A stretch of DNA of 64,000 nt from Gammaproteobacteria bacterium (GCA_015488885.1 WFMW01000018.1:888-64887), one strand, 5' to 3'. Positions 827 to 35,418 are shown, counted from the stretch's first letter. Translations and numbers: made by a program. The notes: generated by a model not told the origin, from the sequence alone.

Positions 827-3097
827 TTAACGAGTTTGCCGCATAGTATGTTCTATGGCAATGGCACTCATATTAACCAGACCACGAACCGTGGTAGATT
901 GTGCCACAACATGGACAGACTTTTCCATCCCCATCAACACCGGGCCGATAAGCACACCACCACCAAGTATTTTCAATAGATTGGCAGCTATATTTGCCGC
1001 GTCCACATTAGGCATAACCAGCAGGTTGGCACTGCCCTTGAGTTTTGAACCCGGATAAAAGCGCCTGCGAATTGTTTCAGACAAAGCTGCATCGGCATGC
1101 ATTTCACCATCCACTTCCAGCGTGGGAGCAAGCTGATGCAGTTTAATCACAGCCTGCCTGACTTTTATGGCCGACTCATCGGCCAGTGAACCAAAATTGG
1201 AATGCGAAACCAGGGCGACTTTAGGGGTAATCCCAAAATGTCGAATTTCTTCAGCTGCCAGCAATGTCGCTTCGACCAGTTCATCCGGGGACGGGTTGCT
1301 GGTGACATGAACATCACACAGAAACAGGGTTTTGCCAGGTAACAAATGTGCCACCAGTGTCGATGCCTGCGTCACCCCCGGCGCTTTATCAATAACTGCC
1401 ATGATCGCATTAAGATGATGTCGGAAGCGACCAACCACGCCTGCAATCATCGCATCGGCATAACCTTCCCTGACCAGCAAGGCGGCAAATACCGCCGTGG
1501 TGTTGCGCACGACATATTCCGCCGCTTCCGGGGGTACGCCATTACGCCCCATTAACCGGTGATAGGTGGCAACATAATGGTTTAAGCCGGAAAAGGTCTG
1601 TGGATCGATAATTTCAATATCTTTATCCACGTTGATACGCAGGCCGAGTTTATGCATACGTTTCACAATAATTTCTTTATGGCCAATCAGTACAGGGCGG
1701 GCAATACGATTATCAACAACCTGCTGGGCAGCCTGTAAGACACGGTTATCTTCACCTTCTGCAAACACCAGTTTCCTGCCACTATCACAGACATGATCAA
1801 ATATCGGGCGCATAAAAAACCCGCTATGATAATTAAAGTTTTGCAGCTTGAGGCGATATTCATATAAATTTTTAATGGGCCGGGTTGCCACGCCGCTATC
1901 CATGGCTGCCCGGGCGACCGCGCATGGCAGTTCCACCATCAGCCGGGGATCAAAAGGTTTGGGAATCAGATAGTCGCGGCCAAAGATATCCGCCTTGCCA
2001 CCATACGCCTTGATGACCTGCTCTGAACTTTCCTGTTGCACCAGCCTGGACAACGCATTAACACAGGCAAGTTTCATGGCTTCATTAATGGTGGTCGCGC
2101 CTACATCCAGCGCGCCACGAAAGATAAACGGAAAGCACAGCACATTATTGACCTGGTTGGGATAATCGGAACGACCGGTACAGATCAAGGCATCCGGGCG
2201 GGTCTGCCTGACCAGTTCGGGAGATATTTCCGGATCCGGGTTTGCCAGTGCCAACACCAATGGATCTTTGGCCATTTTTTTCAGCATGGCGGGTTTTAAT
2301 ACATTGGCTGCCGACAAACCCAGAAAAATATCCGCACCTGCAATCACCTCATCCAGGGTGCGTGCATCGGTATCGACAGCAAATGCCGATTTCCATTTAT
2401 CCATTTGCTGCGTGCGCCCCTGATAGACCACGCCGACAATATCGGTAACAATAATATTTTCGCGGGGCAAACCCGCACTGAGCAGCTGATTTAAACAGGC
2501 CAGCGCGGCCGCACCGGCACCTGAAGTCACCAGGCGAATATCACTAATGGTTTTATTAACCACCTTCAATGCACTTAATACGGCTGCCGCAACAATAATG
2601 GCCGTGCCGTGCTGGTCATCGTGAAACACCGGAATATGCATCCGCTCACGTAACGCCTGCTCAATTTCAAAACATTCGGGTGCTTTAATATCTTCCAGAT
2701 TAATACCGCCAAAGGTTGGCTCAAGACTTGATACCGTTTCTACGAATTGTTCTATATTGGGTTGATTTATTTCAATATCAAAGACATCAATACCGGAGAA
2801 TTTTTTGAATAGAACCGCTTTGCCTTCCATCACCGGTTTGGCTGCCAGTGGGCCAATATTGCCCAGACCAAGCACCGCACTGCCATTGGTAATCACCCCG
2901 ACCAGATTGGAACGAATGGTAAAATGCGCGACCTGACTGGCATCCGCCATAATCGCTTCACAGGTGGCGGCAACACCGGGGGAATAGGCCAGCCCTAAAT
3001 CATGTTGATTCGCCAGTGGTTTGGTCGAGCTGATTTCCAGCTTACCTGGAGTCGGGTATTGATGATAGTCCAGTGCGTCCTGATCCAGCTCTGACAT
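827..3097 (-). CDS. maeB: NADP-dependent malic enzyme with C-terminal phosphotransacetylase-like domain
   Basis: 756 aa; [53 protein letters not shown]; PTA-like domain FAEGED...DGEMHAD. Confidence 0.96.
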
Positions 3098-3185
3098 AGC
3101 GTGCCCTCTACCTGATATTGATCATACCCTGTTAGTGTAGAAGTTTATTGACAAGTTTTTGAGATCGGGAAAATAAATAAGACAT

Positions 3186-3210
3186 TCTGACTGAGTTTTA
3201 TTCAGTCAGA
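3186..3210. terminator. Stem-loop downstream of the ACP gene
   Basis: TCTGACTGA-N7-TCAGTCAGA, perfect 9-bp stem. Confidence 0.5.
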
Positions 3211-3279
3211 TTTATTCATCCCTGCTCCATTCATCCTGGCTCCATTATGGCAGGCTGTTAACGGCACCATAAAGATGCA

Positions 3280-3519
3280 TCAGGCCGCTGCATTCTGACG
3301 TAATTCATCAATTTTTACCACAATATCATTTACTGTTTGCATTTTTTCTATCAACTCATTGGGTATTTCAATGTCGTACTCTTCTTCAAGATCATAAAGA
3401 ACAGTAATGGCCTTCAGTGAATCAAGACCGAGTGATGCCAATGGTGAATCAGGTTTTATTTTCTCAACGGGGCAATTGGCGGTAGTACTTATTATTTCGG
3501 CTACTTTGGAAAATATCAT
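3280..3519 (-). CDS. Acyl carrier protein (accessory, not in a fab operon)
   Basis: 79 aa, acidic; LGLDSL phosphopantetheine Ser motif, LEEEYDIEIP. Confidence 0.9.
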   Translation of the reverse strand: MIFSKVAEIISTTANCPVEKIKPDSPLASLGLDSLKAITVLYDLEEEYDIEIPNELIEKMQTVNDIVVKIDELRQNAAA

Positions 3520-28323: not shown

Positions 28324-29031
28324 ATGATTTTACAGATATCCATGACAGATAAATATACAGACAATACTATTAAAACAAGCCTGAAACAGCACCATCTTTT
28401 TTCCAGACTGACCAGTTTACAACTTGGCAGGGTCATTCGGTACAGCAAAATTCAGCATCTAGATGAAAGTGCAAATCTGTTTAATCAGGGTGAAACCGTG
28501 GCCGGATTTTATATGGTTTTAAGCGGTAAAATGAAGTTATTCCGCATCTCCCCTGACGGTCAGGAAAAAATTATCGAAATTATAAAAACCGGGGAAGTCT
28601 TTGCTGAAGCATTAATGTTTACCGATCAGACCGACTACCCGGTTAGTGCGGCTGCACTGGCAGAAACTGAAGTGCTAAAAATTGATGCAAAAAAATTCAA
28701 ACACATGTTATGGGATTCACCGGATACCTGTTTTTTGCTTTTGGGTGCAATGAGTGTACGCTTAAGGGGGCTGGTGGAAGAGATTGATACCCTTACTTTA
28801 CACAGTGGAACCTGCCGGGTAGCTACCTATCTGATACATGAAATGCCGGAAAATACGGATCGATTTGAACTCGATACAGCTAAAAATGTTATTGCTGCAC
28901 GCTTGTCTATAAAACCGGAAACGTTCTCCAGAATCATTAAAAATCTGAAAAATGAGGGCGTGTTGACCATTGAAGGTAATACCGTCTGTATTTATGATAT
29001 AGCTGGTTTAAAAGAACACAGTATTATCTAA
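28324..29031 (+). CDS. Crp/Fnr-family regulator, Dnr-like
   Basis: LFNQGE, DGQEKII, FAEALMF..YPVSA, HTH KNVIAARLSIKPETFSR; no FNR Cys cluster. Confidence 0.85.
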   Translation: MILQISMTDKYTDNTIKTSLKQHHLFSRLTSLQLGRVIRYSKIQHLDESANLFNQGETVAGFYMVLSGKMKLFRISPDGQEKIIEIIKTGEVFAEALMFTDQTDYPVSAAALAETEVLKIDAKKFKHMLWDSPDTCFLLLGAMSVRLRGLVEEIDTLTLHSGTCRVATYLIHEMPENTDRFELDTAKNVIAARLSIKPETFSRIIKNLKNEGVLTIEGNTVCIYDIAGLKEHSII

Positions 29032-29043
29032 GGAAGCTCAGAA

Positions 29044-29904
29044 TCAGTTTCCCGGGTTATTAAGTTCCAGTAAACGCTGCCGATACGTCTGTACCCGTTC
29101 ATCGTCTTTTCCAAGCATAATAAACAGGCCGTGCATACATAAACTGGCTAACTGATTATTCCAGTTTCTATCCTGCCTGATTATGCCAAGCAGGAGATTC
29201 ATGGCAGAAGAATAATCACTCTCCAGCATTTTATAGCTACATAGCTGGAACAGTTTATTAATACTCTGCTTATGTTCAAGTGCTTCTTCCAGCTTATCCA
29301 CCGCTTCTGAAGTTTGTTGTGTGGCCAGAAAAATGGCATTTGTCATCAGTACAACTGCCTCATCACTTTCCTCTCTTAAAGGCGTTTTTTCAAGCAGATC
29401 AAATGCCTGTTGATAAGCCTGTTCACGCATTAATAGCTTGGCATACGTTAAAAATATGCGATTATTTTCCGGATCAATAAAAACCAGTTTATTTAAATGG
29501 TCAAAAGCAGACTGTTTATTTCCCTGCTGATAATCTGCCACCGCCGCTGCAAGCATTTTATCCGACTCACGTGCCAGGTATTTATCTAACATCTTTTTAA
29601 AGCTATCTGCTGAGTCATAGCCGTAAATCTGCTCAACAACCTCACCATTGATAAAAAGCTTTACTGCAGGTACGCTGGTTACGCCATAATCATGTGCAAG
29701 TTGTCTATTTTTATCGGTATTGATATTAACCAGTAAAAACTGCCCGGCATAGTCATTTGCCAGTTTTTCGAGTACCGGCCATAAACGCAGACACGGCCCG
29801 GCATTTTTTGACCAGTAATTTACCATCACCGGACCTTTGTGAGAGTTACTCAGCACTACATCAGTAAAATTTTCCTGTGTTACATCAAGAATAAACTGAC
29901 TCAT
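29044..29904 (-). CDS. Thioredoxin-TPR co-chaperone (YbbN/CnoX-like)
   Basis: DVTQENF..PVMVNYW..AGPC (single Cys), GVTSVP, TPR-like helices, YRQRL end. Confidence 0.85.
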   Translation of the reverse strand: MSQFILDVTQENFTDVVLSNSHKGPVMVNYWSKNAGPCLRLWPVLEKLANDYAGQFLLVNINTDKNRQLAHDYGVTSVPAVKLFINGEVVEQIYGYDSADSFKKMLDKYLARESDKMLAAAVADYQQGNKQSAFDHLNKLVFIDPENNRIFLTYAKLLMREQAYQQAFDLLEKTPLREESDEAVVLMTNAIFLATQQTSEAVDKLEEALEHKQSINKLFQLCSYKMLESDYSSAMNLLLGIIRQDRNWNNQLASLCMHGLFIMLGKDDERVQTYRQRLLELNNPGN

Positions 29905-30717: not shown

Positions 30718-30835
30718 ACTCCAGAAGAAGATGATTTTACTCAGATGATTTTACTCAATTGAACATAAAGATTCAGTTATTTATTACTGGCATGCAAGCA
30801 TGCTCTTATTGAGGCAATATAAATAGTGGTACTGT

Positions 30836-31828
30836 ATGAATAATTTGATGTATATATTAACAAATAAACTAGCCTGGCTGTTATACATGATGGTATTGAT
30901 TTATACCTTTATTTATACCTTTAATTGTGAAGCAGATCCTCTTGTCGCTTTACCGTTATCAACATCAAAAGCATTAAACATGGACAAGGTTAAGTTAGGT
31001 GGAAAATTATTTAATAATAAAGCCCTGCTAAAAGCTAAATCAAGCTGTGCAAGTTGCCACCAGCTGTCTCAGGGGGGTGATAGTGGGCATCAAAAAGATA
31101 TGTCACATGGACAATTTTCCTATTTAATTAATACGCCAAGTATTTTTAATGTCCGCTACAATTTCAGACAGGACTGGGATGGATCTGATCATTCACTTAA
31201 AAGTCAGCTTGAAAAAATATTTAATAATCCAGCTCTGGTAGATAATCAGCATTTAATTATCCGTCGATTAAAACAGGATGCTGAAATTAATGCCAGCTTT
31301 AATCATATTTACAGACAGGGAATAACTATTGCAACTATCATTGACAGCCTTGTGGAATTCGAAAAATCACTGGTTACACCCAATTCCAGGTTTGACCAGT
31401 ACCTAAATGGAAACAAACATGCATTAACGGATGATGAAATAGCTGGCTATCATCTTTTCAGGGAGCTGGGATGTGTTTCATGTCATCAGGGTATCAATAT
31501 TGGGGGAAATTTATTCCAGAAATTCGGTATTTTTTATAATTATCTAGCGCAACGCGGCCATATTAACCATGCAGACTATGGAAGATTCAATATTACCGGC
31601 CGAAAAATGGATAAATTTGTTTTTAAGGTGCCATCATTACGTAATGTGGCAGTTACCGCACCCTATTTACACGATGGCAGTGCAAAAACACTGGAACAGG
31701 CAATATTGATAGTCGGTCGTACGCAACTTGGTAGAAATCTTGATACCTATCAGATCCATCTGTTAAAAACATTTCTGTTAACACTCACCGGTCAATACAA
31801 TAATAGATTTCTGGTTGATGATCAATGA
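30836..31828 (+). CDS. Di-haem cytochrome c peroxidase/MauG-family protein, catalytically divergent
   Basis: CASCH, CVSCH, NTPSIFN, WDG, FKVPSLRNVAVTAPYLHDG; NPALV where peroxidases have NPxEM, IVG where they have IMG. Confidence 0.9.
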   Translation: MNNLMYILTNKLAWLLYMMVLIYTFIYTFNCEADPLVALPLSTSKALNMDKVKLGGKLFNNKALLKAKSSCASCHQLSQGGDSGHQKDMSHGQFSYLINTPSIFNVRYNFRQDWDGSDHSLKSQLEKIFNNPALVDNQHLIIRRLKQDAEINASFNHIYRQGITIATIIDSLVEFEKSLVTPNSRFDQYLNGNKHALTDDEIAGYHLFRELGCVSCHQGINIGGNLFQKFGIFYNYLAQRGHINHADYGRFNITGRKMDKFVFKVPSLRNVAVTAPYLHDGSAKTLEQAILIVGRTQLGRNLDTYQIHLLKTFLLTLTGQYNNRFLVDDQ

Positions 31829-34800
31829 ATATAAAAAGAAAAGTAAATCATTGGACGGGTATTATTCTGCTGATTTCAGTAATATGTTTTTTATTTTATA
31901 AAAGCGTATTAAATGAAACCCCATTTTCAGATGCACTCAATTCAATAGAAATCATTAATAATTTACAGGTTCAACTACATCGTGATTTATTGAGATACAG
32001 AAATAACCAGATACAGCAATATGATTTACTCAATAATACAATCAGTAAGTTACGCCAGCATATAAATGCTATGCTGAAAAACAAGGTTATGCAAACCAGT
32101 ATATCACCATACAAACTCGATTCATTAAACACCTGTATACATAACGAAGAAAAACTCATTGAAGATTTTAAAACCCATCTTTCAATTGTAAAAAATTCGC
32201 TATCCTATCTATACAAAGCGGCAAATACGATATATTCCGAAGAAAACCTGTATAAAAAAATACCCACAGACAATACTTCTTCCGAATTAATTACTTTATT
32301 ACTGGAATACAATAACAACCCAAAAACAAGTATCGCCAAAAGAATCTATCCGCTTATCGACCATTTAAATCATAACCCTGATATTGACACAAATTCATTG
32401 ATTATCCATAGTTTGTTAATGATTGAGAGACTACCCGTTATCGACAATATATTAAATAATTTCAACACATTAAATACAGAGAAACAAATTATTAATATAA
32501 AAAATACAATCATCAAACTACAGAAAAAACAAAATGAACAATCGCATATTTATAACAGTCTGCTATTTCTTTTTAGTTTTTTTCTTATCGGATATATCGC
32601 CTATATTTTTATTCGCCTGAGGAAAAACAGGCTGCACTTATCGACTATAAATAATCGATTAAATAATGAAGTCAAACAACGCACACAAACTGAAAACGCA
32701 CTCTACAAACTTGTTGAAATAGATGACATAAATAATAATGAAGATGATGATATTAAAAACCTGTTAAATGCTATCTGTAATGCATTAAATGTATGTTGTG
32801 CTTACATAAGCCTTATTGATAAATCAGAAAAAAATGGTGAGATCGTTGGGATTGTATGCAATCATACTTATTCTACCAATATACCTTTTAAGCTTAGGGG
32901 CACCCCATGTGAAGATGTGATGAAAAAAGACAGACTGGTATTTAATAAAGATATCCAAAAATATTATCCAGACTGGGATTTTAACTACCTTTCATCACCA
33001 GAAGGCTATATAGGCGTTTCACTTAATGATAAAAATAGAAAGATATATGGTTTATTAACCGTTGTTGATAATAAAGAAATATTTGATACTGTACTGATGG
33101 AAGGGATTTTAGGTTTAGCAGCTCCCAGAGCTATTATTGAGTTACATAAACAAATTGAATCAAACAATACTTTACGTTATCAACGTGGTCTAAAACTGAT
33201 TGATGAGTGGATAGTAAAGATTATCAGTAATGGTTTTAACCAGAAAAAGTTCTATGAGAATATCTGTATTGCAGCCAGTGAAATTACGCAATCTCAATTA
33301 GCGGTATTTCCAGTTATTAAAAAATCAGTACACGAATGCTATTTTATTTCCGCAGCAGGAATAGATGCTAATCAACTGTATAATACCCGCCTGCCGCTTA
33401 AAGCTGATGGTTTATGTGCATGGACAATAAATAACAACAGCAATTTGTTGCTTAATAATCTTGATACTGATCCAAGAACAGAACAGATATTTATAGATAA
33501 TATTAAAATGAAATCTGCTTTATTTACACCTGTCAGCATAAAAGGTGATCCTTATGGTGCCATTGGTGTTTTCAGAAATAATCAGGATTTTGATACAATT
33601 GATGAACAACTTATTACCCAGTTCAGCCAGAGCGTACAAATGGCTATTATTAATATGCAACTGGTTAATGACGTTCAATCTGAACGTGAACGCGCAGAAG
33701 TTACTCTACATTCAATTGCTGATGCAGTTATAACCACGAATATTAACGGCAATATTGAATATATGAACCAGGCTGCAGAAACAATAACTGCCTGGAAATT
33801 TGAAGATATAAAAAATAAGGCAATACAGGATATTTTTCGTATTCTTGATATTGATACACGTGAACCTTTTCATGATATTGTTAAATCATGTCTTAACGAA
33901 GGCATAAGTATCAATAAAAGTAAACTTATCCTGCTTACCAGAAACGATAATGAAAAAGATATTGAAAGTTCAATATCACCTATCTTAAATTCGTCCGGTC
34001 AGGTTGAGGGAATTGTTATTGTCTTTCATGATGAAACTCAGCGTCGCCAGCTTGAAAATACCATTATACACCAGGCTTCACATGACCCGCTTACCGATTT
34101 GTTAAATCGTGCTTCATTTGATCAGGAATTAAACAGACACGTCTTTGATGTAAGAAATTCGGACAGGATACATATATTATGTTATCTTGATCTGGATCGT
34201 TTTAAACTGGTCAATGACACAGCCGGACACTGCGCAGGTGATCAGTGTCTGATTGAAATTGCATCGCTTATTCAGTTATCAACCCGCGGTGATGATATCT
34301 TTGCACGCCTGGGCGGTGATGAATTCGGCCTTATTCTAAGAAACTGTAATATTGATGCAGCAGTTAAAATAACAAATAATATTATCAATGCGGTAAAATC
34401 ATTCCAGTTTAACTGGGATGCCTGTGATTACAATCTTGGCGTCAGTATTGGTATTGTTCCCATCAGTCAATCCACAAAAGATCCGGCAGAAGCGATACGT
34501 AAAGCAGACCTGGCCTGTTATACGGCAAAAGATCAGGGACGTGGGCAGGTTTATGTTTATGAGGAACAGGATAATGAACTTATCAAACGCCAGAAGGAAG
34601 CATATTGGGCCAGTCGTATGCGTGAGGTGCTGGATAATGATCGTATTAAATTATATGCCCAACCTATTGTACCATTAAGTAATAAACTCCCGCAGAGCAG
34701 ACATTTTGAAATACTGGTGCGTCTGGTTGATGAGAATAAACAGCTTATTCAGCCAGATGCGTTCATTCCCGCAGCTGAACGATATAACCTGATGCATGAT

Positions 34801-35418
34801 ATAGATAAGCGTATCATACACGACACTTTTAAATTTATCAGCGAGCAAAAAACGGTCTGTAATAATAGCCAGTTTTCAATCAATCTTTCAGGTAATTCAC
34901 TTAGCGAAGGTGATATCGCTGCTTATATTGAATTATTACTTAACCAGTATGATATTAACGCCAGAAAGATCTGTTTTGAAATAACAGAAACTGCGGCAAT
35001 AAAAAACATGAAAACCACCATGCAGTTAATCAGAAAATTAAAATCCATTGGTTGTCAGTTTGCACTGGATGATTTTGGTACAGGTCTGTCATCATTTCAG
35101 TACCTGAAGAATATGCATGTTGACTACCTTAAAATAGACGGCAGCTTTGTGCATGATATGGTAAATAATAAAATCGATCAGGCAATGGTTGCTGCTATTA
35201 ATCAGGTTGGCCATATTATGGGAATAAAAACTATTGCCGAATATGTTGAGAATGATGATATTATCCATATACTTAAACAACTTAATGTTGATTATGCTCA
35301 AGGATATGGCATTAAAAAACCTCAGCCACTGGCTGATTTTTTTGTCGGAGCTGAAAAAAGAACTGCCATCAATATTCAACCAGCACCTACGCTCAAACTG
35401 GTTAAAAATAAATCTTGA
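31825..35418 (+). CDS. Membrane DAHL-GAF-GAF-PAS-GGDEF-EAL signalling protein
   Basis: TM, RDLLRYR..YDLL..EDFK..NSLSYL (DAHL-like), TM; GTPC-type GAF; second GAF; PAS (TLHSIADAVITT); RGDD I-site plus GGDEF; EIL, DDFGTG, AEYVE; ATGA overlap with the upstream gene. Confidence 0.9.
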   Translation: MNIKRKVNHWTGIILLISVICFLFYKSVLNETPFSDALNSIEIINNLQVQLHRDLLRYRNNQIQQYDLLNNTISKLRQHINAMLKNKVMQTSISPYKLDSLNTCIHNEEKLIEDFKTHLSIVKNSLSYLYKAANTIYSEENLYKKIPTDNTSSELITLLLEYNNNPKTSIAKRIYPLIDHLNHNPDIDTNSLIIHSLLMIERLPVIDNILNNFNTLNTEKQIINIKNTIIKLQKKQNEQSHIYNSLLFLFSFFLIGYIAYIFIRLRKNRLHLSTINNRLNNEVKQRTQTENALYKLVEIDDINNNEDDDIKNLLNAICNALNVCCAYISLIDKSEKNGEIVGIVCNHTYSTNIPFKLRGTPCEDVMKKDRLVFNKDIQKYYPDWDFNYLSSPEGYIGVSLNDKNRKIYGLLTVVDNKEIFDTVLMEGILGLAAPRAIIELHKQIESNNTLRYQRGLKLIDEWIVKIISNGFNQKKFYENICIAASEITQSQLAVFPVIKKSVHECYFISAAGIDANQLYNTRLPLKADGLCAWTINNNSNLLLNNLDTDPRTEQIFIDNIKMKSALFTPVSIKGDPYGAIGVFRNNQDFDTIDEQLITQFSQSVQMAIINMQLVNDVQSERERAEVTLHSIADAVITTNINGNIEYMNQAAETITAWKFEDIKNKAIQDIFRILDIDTREPFHDIVKSCLNEGISINKSKLILLTRNDNEKDIESSISPILNSSGQVEGIVIVFHDETQRRQLENTIIHQASHDPLTDLLNRASFDQELNRHVFDVRNSDRIHILCYLDLDRFKLVNDTAGHCAGDQCLIEIASLIQLSTRGDDIFARLGGDEFGLILRNCNIDAAVKITNNIINAVKSFQFNWDACDYNLGVSIGIVPISQSTKDPAEAIRKADLACYTAKDQGRGQVYVYEEQDNELIKRQKEAYWASRMREVLDNDRIKLYAQPIVPLSNKLPQSRHFEILVRLVDENKQLIQPDAFIPAAERYNLMHDIDKRIIHDTFKFISEQKTVCNNSQFSINLSGNSLSEGDIAAYIELLLNQYDINARKICFEITETAAIKNMKTTMQLIRKLKSIGCQFALDDFGTGLSSFQYLKNMHVDYLKIDGSFVHDMVNNKIDQAMVAAINQVGHIMGIKTIAEYVENDDIIHILKQLNVDYAQGYGIKKPQPLADFFVGAEKRTAINIQPAPTLKLVKNKS

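Follow-up and report, generated by a model that had tools for sequence, protein, structure and literature searches.

A cytochrome c peroxidase homologue as the probable periplasmic sensing subunit of a DAHL-domain receptor for cyclic dimeric GMP signalling

What is a homologue of the cytochrome c peroxidases (CCPs) doing in translational overlap with a membrane-bound enzyme of cyclic dimeric GMP (c-di-GMP) turnover? The question arises from a 64,000-nt stretch of DNA of a gammaproteobacterium (GCA_015488885.1, WFMW01000018.1:888-64887; hereafter the window), in which the gene for a di-haem protein of the CCP/MauG family, P0001, is directly followed by the gene for P0002, a receptor that combines a periplasmic DAHL domain with GAF, GAF, PAS, GGDEF and EAL domains. 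An initial annotation of the window had noticed that the two open reading frames (ORFs) overlap in an ATGA at position 31825, and we recovered both ORFs with this overlap of 4 nt, which holds the stop of P0001 and the start of P0002. The annotation had gone on to propose that the haem protein is no peroxidase and that it is a periplasmic receptor docking on DAHL. We conclude that P0001 is probably the receptor's periplasmic sensing subunit, not a detoxifying enzyme. In the form that we favour, which we regard as likely although well short of assured, P0001 is a haem co-sensor whose C-terminal haem is without a sixth ligand and which, docked on DAHL, sets the c-di-GMP balance. What speaks for such a co-sensor in the small subclade of P0001 is observed: the genes are coupled, the clade has a structure of its own, the substitutions are present, and an interface is predicted.

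The initial annotation expected the adjacency of CCP and DAHL genes to recur in other genomes, and we found that it does. Starting from the haem protein, we sampled 80 loci from species-representative genomes. Pfam recognised DAHL in 58 of the downstream ORFs (29/30 in one set and 29 of the first 30 in another), and a hidden Markov model (HMM) built from these 58 recognised 17 more. DAHL lies directly downstream in 75/80 loci, or 75 of the 78 that were assessable, with two loci (L056 and L067) cut by contig ends and three (L029, L053 and L074) having no DAHL. Among 80 metagenome loci the corresponding count was 73 (73/76 assessable; four had no room and three had none), and within the organism's own order (97 genomes) DAHL accompanied all 29 best matches and all 12 intermediate matches. 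A search in the opposite direction, starting from DAHL, gave a match in 51 of 301 genomes of the phylum; in each of the 29 loci fetched (the DAHL-first sample), the haem gene is directly upstream on the same strand. No DAHL was found near canonical CCPs (0/23 loci, within ~2.4 kb where the contig allowed and within only ~1.4 kb downstream at L146), a control set of 20 low-identity paralogues, 2 Nitrosomonas europaea-like enzymes and the second CCP of the window's genome. Judged by identical pentapeptide match scores and ORF lengths, 14 of the 80 genome loci appear to recur in the order and canonical sets, so these counts are not independent. The outputs behind DAHL include GGDEF-EAL proteins, adenylate/guanylate cyclases, histidine kinases, hybrid kinases, chemoreceptors (L060 and L078) and a SpoIIE phosphatase (L049). 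We conclude that the haem gene and the DAHL receptor gene form an obligate, translationally coupled pair, whatever the output.

Some of the sampled loci carry a further gene. In a cyanobacterial locus (L079, 3635-4069), a DUF29 gene separates the two members of the pair. In five Pseudomonas loci (L021, L023, L042, L047 and L063), an ORF of 635-694 aa lies just upstream of the haem gene, and a DAHL kinase without a clear HisKA match lies downstream of it. The upstream ORF was scanned in two of them, L021 and L042, and encodes a REC-GGDEF-EAL protein in both, an arrangement that suggests a three-gene c-di-GMP circuit.

By family, P0001 is a CCP homologue. It matches PF03150 (CCP_MauG) at 9e-36, and among solved structures it comes closest to canonical di-haem peroxidases, with 5.6e-58 for the N. 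europaea CCP 1iqc and 6.1e-56 for 3o5c, against only ~1e-13 for MauG. The best NCBIfam model is that of MbnH (TIGR04039), at 145 bits against a cut-off of 363, and the MauG model (TIGR03791) reaches 90 bits against a cut-off of 444. The motifs that the initial annotation listed as kept are all present: both CxxCH motifs, which hardly vary, if at all, among 206 aligned relatives, the His at the distal-His position (His91), the inter-haem Trp W114 (206/206 aligned relatives) and the Ca-site residues T274 and P276 (205/206 and 206/206).

Two residues on which peroxidases of this fold depend are replaced, at the very positions that the annotation had named by eye. In HMMER alignments to four solved proteins (1iqc, 3o5c, 9qdt and 1zzh), the catalytic Glu of NPxEM aligned with Leu134 in 4/4, and the Met ligand of the C-terminal ('E') haem aligned with Val293 in 4/4; both residues are kept in 23/23 canonical CCPs of our tree set. 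We looked for a Glu or Met in a shifted register, or another ligand-type residue, and none was conserved within P0001's own subclade. Likewise, there is no conserved subclade-specific Tyr that would replace the Met ligand; Val or Ile stands in 14/14 sequences at this position, which we take to be equivalent to that of the MauG Tyr. The E haem has His-Met ligation in canonical enzymes and His-Tyr ligation in enzymes of the MauG type, according to the excerpted text of one source (PMC11892367). As far as the alignments can tell, the E haem of P0001 has neither. For His91 the alignment consulted was that to 1iqc, where it paired with the His of the IGH motif, the residue by which activatable enzymes block their peroxidatic ('P') haem. 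The genome has a second CCP (G000 contig 72, 36519-37424; L145), a canonical one with Glu and Met in place and no DAHL gene nearby.

The annotation had further anticipated that DAHL-adjacent CCPs would form a clade lacking Glu and Met. The separate clade was recovered; the loss of the residues proved not to be general in it. In trees built with FastTree and with fast IQ-TREE, the latter with support from the Shimodaira-Hasegawa-like approximate likelihood ratio test (SH-aLRT), canonical CCPs split from the rest (SH-aLRT 99.5), and the DAHL-linked clade of the FastTree tree held 240 tips with no canonical CCP inside. Met is kept in 226 of these 240 and Glu in 155. The residues are also mostly kept in the DAHL-first sample (Met 29/29, Glu 23/28) and among the metagenome loci (76/80 and 59/80); among representatives at 50% identity, Met is kept in 145/149 and Glu in 73/149. 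A distal His was found in 0/28 of the DAHL-first partners. Judged from the Glu and Met positions, then, the haem partner of most relatives looks peroxidase-competent, with His-Met ligation and, in the majority, Glu.

In about half of the 149 representatives, Val, Ile, Leu, Ala or other residues occupy the Glu position, and Met is almost always kept. Since Glu is replaced in about half of these nearest representatives, many members of the CCP-like family may be poor peroxidases.

Both residues are lost only in a nested subclade of 14 sequences, made up of the window protein, P0003-P0014 and the protein of a genome of the same genus, G081. All 14 have His91, Pro or Leu at position 134 and Val or Ile at position 293, and they share the fixed changes D83S, G/S88D and A171S. 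The subclade is monophyletic (FastTree 1.0, SH-aLRT 100) and, within the same bacterial family, is nested among proteins that retain both Met and Glu (SH-aLRT 99.2 and 99.9). The stem, at 0.31, compares with 0.066 for the median internal branch and with 0.32 at the 95th percentile, and the tips are 0.86 from the shared ancestor, compared with 0.79 for the sister clade. Identity within it falls to ~52%, and both haem sites, the Trp, the Ca-site residues and the interface motif described below are kept. A long stem, tips at sister-like distances and conservation of these sites look like a functional change followed by conservation, not decay. The size of the subclade could not be derived from the 50%-identity representatives, where the whole gammaproteobacterial group merged into one cluster; the metagenome scan added to it only L186, which is the window's own sequence, and L187.

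A pair of Met-less proteins was found elsewhere in the DAHL-linked clade (L200, 4297-7970, and L244, 1117-4829), with Val/Ile at the Met position, a distal His, and Glu kept. These are unrelated to the 14-sequence subclade, so Met has been lost at least twice in DAHL-linked proteins. Their partner is a DAHL-GAF-HisKA-HATPase-REC hybrid kinase, and a gene for an HTH-REC regulator lies upstream.

Docking of the haem protein on DAHL, as the initial annotation had proposed, is supported by a model of the complex. The model was built from the mature haem protein (56 aligned rows), two haems and DAHL residues 29-245 (44 rows), and scored 0.89 in three runs, against 0.01 for the best of 3 controls; on a calibration that holds only roughly for such an input, this mark was reached by 116/157 solved complexes and 2/215 mismatched pairs. 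At least 98% of contacts were common to the runs, and the partner had a predicted local distance difference test score (pLDDT) of at least 83. On the haem protein, the predicted interface comprises residues 209-233 (the second CxxCH and QGINIGGNLFQK), residues 297-301, which follow closely on the Met/Val position, and residues 34-37 of the mature N-terminus; on DAHL, it comprises residues 64-67, 113-131 and 187-198.

The predicted interface is conserved on both sides. Its haem-side residues differ in canonical CCPs, and in the DAHL-linked clade the second haem site is followed by the motif CHQG(I/V)N(I/V)GGN(L/M)(F/Y)QK, which reads CHQGINIGGNLFQK in the window; within this region Q218, G219 and N225 are present in 241/241 members and Q228 in 227/241. 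On the DAHL side, D67 and H195 are invariant (44/44) among sequences that are otherwise 13-52% identical, the near-invariant Y66, K116 and N124 (43/44) belong to the interface as well, as does Y128, and F115 and the invariant S125 sit just beside the listed residues.

The DAHL domain itself was modelled as a helical bundle (pLDDT 93.3). With this model Foldseek gave no match at E <= 0.001, the best being at E 0.01 or worse. VIA-align matched it to LytS-N in complex with XylFII (Z 16.5), McpS (Z 16.4), TorS alone or with TorT (Z 13.3-15.4) and PilJ (Z 13.8-14.5), values only somewhat above those of generic helical-bundle matches. Among LytS-N, McpS and TorS are two sensors to which a docked protein of the periplasm delivers the signal.

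For the receptor, the layout read by the initial annotation held: Pfam recognised DAHL, the second GAF, PAS, GGDEF and EAL domains, and the stretch before the second GAF, which had no Pfam match, gave a model (AlphaFold2, with 11 orthologues; mean pLDDT 79.8) for which GAF domains were the best Foldseek matches (3ci6, template modelling score TMt 0.70-0.72, E ~1e-6). This stretch folds as a GAF domain, and the DAHL-GAF-GAF-PAS-GGDEF-EAL architecture therefore stands. By motif, both catalytic domains of P0002 are complete, again in agreement with the annotation. The cyclase part has the RGDD of an intact RxxD I-site, 5 residues before GGDEF, and the EAL part has ExL (reading EIL), EITE, DDFGTG, KID and QGY; RxxD with GGDEF, ExL, EITE, KID and QGY are kept in 13/13 orthologues checked. 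The N-terminus of P0002 also matches a VirA-like kinase model. P0002 is the genome's only DAHL protein.

We propose that the pair forms one sensory unit. The exported di-haem protein would bind in the cell, through its C-terminal haem domain, to the periplasmic DAHL domain of the receptor; contact would be made by the CxxCH-QGINIGGNLFQK loop and by the loop that normally bears the Met ligand. In a canonical CCP, it is at the E-haem domain that the electron donor would arrive. The receptor would then relay the state of the haem protein across the membrane and through GAF-GAF-PAS, to set synthesis of c-di-GMP by GGDEF against its hydrolysis by EAL. In most relatives the haem partner probably reports peroxide or the redox state of the periplasm. 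In the lineage of P0001, the partner would have been remodelled on one long branch, with Met replaced by Val or Ile, Glu replaced by Leu or Pro, and a His placed where activatable peroxidases block the N-terminal haem. From the loss of Met and Glu and from this His we infer that peroxide is no longer turned over. The C-terminal haem, without a sixth ligand from the protein and located at the interface, would bind a small ligand or change its spin or redox state, and this would be the signal.

A narrower version of this proposal names the kind of signal. The co-sensor of this lineage would have been converted to a ligand sensor, in which the Met-less haem at the interface binds nitric oxide (NO), carbon monoxide (CO), O2 or sulfide; a Val or Ile would face the C-terminal haem, as in the hydrophobic distal pocket of cytochrome c', the N-terminal haem would be locked by His, and the former Met loop would move against the helix of His195 and so switch c-di-GMP turnover. 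We offer this version tentatively, as a possibility that may well prove wrong. The ligands would be relevant if a hydrothermal-vent label holds that is attached to matching DNA sequencing runs.

Several points weigh against a haem co-sensor with an open C-terminal site. The gene context of the subclade is known for two species only, those of the window and of G081, and L187, which has the same motifs as G081, may be of the same species. Adjacency alone is also compatible with a co-expressed enzyme. With Glu kept in 73/149 representatives, its loss alone is not unusual in the wider family. The complex score is the model's own confidence, and the unpaired alignments and the two haems depart from the calibration. 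The coordination of the haem is read from sequence, and its sixth position could be filled by water, hydroxide or a side chain of the receptor. Finally, in the 1iqc alignment a distal His is found also in the N. europaea enzyme, which is constitutively open, so His91 alone is no proof that the N-terminal haem is blocked.

The nearest described case is docA-docB of Campylobacter jejuni. The gene order is that of the window pair, with docA (Cj0020c), for a putative cytochrome c peroxidase, immediately upstream of docB (Cj0019c), for the receptor Tlp10; the output there is chemotaxis, whereas that of the window pair is c-di-GMP. Tlp10 reportedly binds small ligands directly. In the excerpted texts of the respective sources, the C. 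jejuni CCP homologues do not contribute to H2O2 resistance and docA mutants are poor colonisers (PMC3156733), DocA is not a typical CCP (PMC5656828), and Tlp10 is the founding DAHL receptor (PMC9796306). Our literature searches brought up no published signalling link between DocA and Tlp10. More generally, a search of full-text literature, with most subscription journals outside it, gave no paper in which a DAHL receptor takes its input from a CCP homologue, in line with the annotation, which was aware of no described mechanism.

Other systems share parts of the proposed design. Canonical CCPs (N. europaea 1iqc, Shewanella 3o5c and the Pseudomonas aeruginosa type) have the same fold family, two c-haems, Trp and Ca site as P0001; P0001 differs in having neither the E-haem Met nor the catalytic Glu, in belonging to the separate DAHL-linked clade, and in carrying, behind its second CxxCH, a surface motif specific to that clade. 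TorS-TorT and LytS-XylFII follow the logic that we propose for P0001 and P0002, in that the signal comes from a soluble protein of the periplasm, but the partner there is a solute-binding protein, whereas that of P0002 is a c-type di-haem protein. VirA-ChvE is another case of a sensor that reads a docked periplasmic protein. In H-NOX, NosP and DosP/DosC, haem senses gases or redox state, and c-di-GMP enzymes or kinases form the output; a haem protein or domain gates a signalling enzyme there, as we propose for P0001. Chemoreceptors with a periplasmic c-haem PAS domain have been described from Geobacter (PMC3460858, in the abstract), so that c-haem in the periplasm is a feature which they share with P0001. 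P0001 differs from all of these haem sensors in its CCP fold, in its two haems and in being a separate subunit that docks on DAHL.

Four other explanations of the pair have to be set against the haem co-sensor. The closest of them keeps the docking and leaves the signal of the family unchanged: P0001 would report redox state or peroxide, Val293 and Leu134 would only retune it, and the C-terminal haem would be six-coordinate through water, hydroxide or a residue of the receptor. The interface and the partner are indeed the same as in Met-keeping orthologues, the invariant H195 of DAHL lies in the interface beside the Met-loop residues 297-301, and the independent Met-less lineage of L200 and L244 keeps its Glu. 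As a matter of general haem chemistry, however, removal of Met from a His-Met c-haem normally shifts spin state and potential strongly, and a single long branch carries fixed changes at 83, 88, 91, 134, 171 and 293 together, which points to more than retuning. We think this explanation rather unlikely. An enzymatic role on the receptor itself has a precedent in relatives of the bacterial CCPs (bCcPs): MauG and MbnH oxidise partners encoded beside them, and MauG, MbnH and BthA work with a nearby-encoded partner and are poor general peroxidases, according to the excerpt of PMC11892367. P0001 could by analogy use H2O2 for a one-time modification of a DAHL side chain, for instance a conserved Tyr or His; MbnH is its best NCBIfam match, and a tight predicted complex with Y66, Y128 and H195 conserved on DAHL would suit an enzyme and its substrate. 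Yet both family models score far under their cut-offs, the closest solved relatives are canonical CCPs (1e-58, compared with 1e-13 for MauG), the E haem is His-Tyr in MauG, MbnH and BthA where P0001 has Val and its subclade has no Tyr, the lineage is without the distal Glu, and the complex model brings DAHL against the C-terminal haem instead of the peroxidatic N-terminal one. Such a maturation enzyme we judge distinctly improbable.

That P0001 is an ordinary periplasmic peroxidase or redox enzyme, co-transcribed with the receptor and making no contact with it, would agree with its CCP family membership and with its intact haem sites, Trp and Ca site. Against this stand the breadth of the pairing, which spans chemoreceptors, cyclases, kinases and a phosphatase, the 29/29 paired loci, with no DAHL found that lacks a haem gene, the canonical CCP that the genome already has, the loss of Glu and Met, a complex model that passes its controls, and the H2O2 resistance of C. 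jejuni, to which docA does not contribute (PMC3156733, excerpt). We regard an ordinary enzyme as very improbable. If the haem protein of this lineage were decaying and no longer functional, the loss of two functionally important residues would be accounted for; the pair is AT-rich, and a second genome of the same genus, G080, has lost it entirely. The frame is nevertheless open, 14 sequences down to ~52% identity keep the haem sites and the interface motif, the subclade has acquired residues of its own (S83, D88, H91 and S171), and its tip distances are near those of the sister clade. Decay, to our mind, is scarcely credible.

The features of the pair and of its surroundings are collected in Table 1.

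Table 1. Features of the haem protein-receptor pair and of the flanking DNA, in window coordinates
Feature	Position	Strand	Remarks
CRP/FNR-family regulator	28324..29031	+	best match FtrB-like; flanks the module
286-aa protein with N-terminal thioredoxin domain	29044..29904	-	flanks the module
Pentapeptide-repeat protein P0130	29901..30674	-	signal-like N-terminus; transcribed divergently from the haem gene
Perfect 14-bp tandem direct repeat GATGATTTTACTCA, 2 copies	30730..30757		in the 161-bp divergent intergenic region between pentapeptide and haem genes
CCP/MauG-family di-haem protein P0001 (330 aa)	30836..31828	+	hydrophobic signal-like N-terminal segment, residues ~1-33; DAHL-linked clade
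First CxxCH (C71-H75), N-terminal ('P') haem site	31046..31060	+	H75 invariant in 206/206
His91, distal-His position of activatable CCPs	31106..31108	+	subclade 14/14; DAHL-first partners 0/28
Leu134, at the catalytic Glu of NPxEM	31235..31237	+	4/4 alignments; Pro or Leu in 14/14 of the subclade
Second CxxCH (C213-H217) and clade-specific motif CHQGINIGGNLFQKFG, residues 209-233	31460..31534	+	core of the predicted DAHL-contact surface
Val293, at the Met axial ligand of the C-terminal ('E') haem	31712..31714	+	followed by residues 297-301 of the predicted interface
Membrane receptor P0002 (1197 aa): transmembrane segment, DAHL, transmembrane segment, GAF, GAF, PAS, GGDEF, EAL	31825..35418	+	
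Periplasmic DAHL domain, residues 34-243	31924..32553	+	Pfam 81 bits, cut-off 38; between two hydrophobic segments
First GAF, residues ~306-469	32740..33231	+	by fold only, no Pfam match
Second GAF, residues 477-608	33253..33648	+	Pfam
PAS, residues 625-742	33697..34050	+	Pfam
GGDEF domain, residues 751-907	34075..34545	+	RGDD I-site and GGDEF
EAL domain, residues 932-1166	34618..35322	+	2e-63; motif reads EIL; EITE, KID, QGY

The region had struck the initial annotation as AT-rich, and this was borne out: the G+C fraction is 0.344 in the pair, 0.421 in the remaining window and 0.445 in the genome. We considered recent horizontal import as the cause and rejected it. The pair is AT-richer than its own flanks in 9/9 orthologous loci, so the dip is a property of the pair genes and not a mark of recent transfer; in G081, moreover, the pair has the same position and synteny is conserved.

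Throughout the organism's family, almost every locus of the pair has the pentapeptide-repeat gene beside it. This gene is not present at distant loci, and G080 keeps it without the haem-DAHL pair; we therefore did not accept its product as an obligate third part, and regard it as a possible accessory of the pair. G080 also keeps the flanking genes for the CRP-like regulator, the thioredoxin-domain protein and YciK, and the DNA of the regulator and thioredoxin-domain genes is syntenic in both same-genus genomes. With synteny otherwise conserved, the place of the pair in G080 (L184, contig 8) is taken by a 471-aa gene at 2029-3444 on the minus strand, which, judged from its solute-binding plus SLT-like translation, probably encodes a membrane-bound lytic transglycosylase.

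The 14-bp repeat between the pentapeptide and haem genes may be a regulator site. Promoter and terminator scans gave nothing above chance (22 found against 26.3 expected, and 6 against 3.3). In a search of sequencing runs, 4 DNA runs matched, of which 3, from 2 studies, hold at least half of the sampled words; these 3 are labelled hydrothermal vent metagenome, and the assembly may itself derive from one of them. No RNA run was listed among the matching runs.

DAHL is, to our knowledge, a widespread extracytoplasmic sensor domain whose signals are known for Tlp10 only. Each of our samples shows it together with a di-haem protein dedicated to it, irrespective of the output. If this haem protein is the real input, then many kinases, cyclases, chemoreceptors and c-di-GMP enzymes, spread over many phyla, would sense peroxide, redox state or gases through an unpublished two-subunit mechanism, and the role of docA in colonisation without protection from peroxide would have a possible explanation. 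In the lineage studied here, the residues that the partner has lost are precisely those that catalysis and closure of the second haem require, which would make sensing separable from turnover, and the predicted interface names residues on both the haem protein and DAHL that can be tested. Should the conversion to a ligand sensor prove true, P0001 would be the first gas or sulfide sensor with a CCP fold, and its lineage would be a natural experiment on how a widespread CCP-DAHL module reads its haem.

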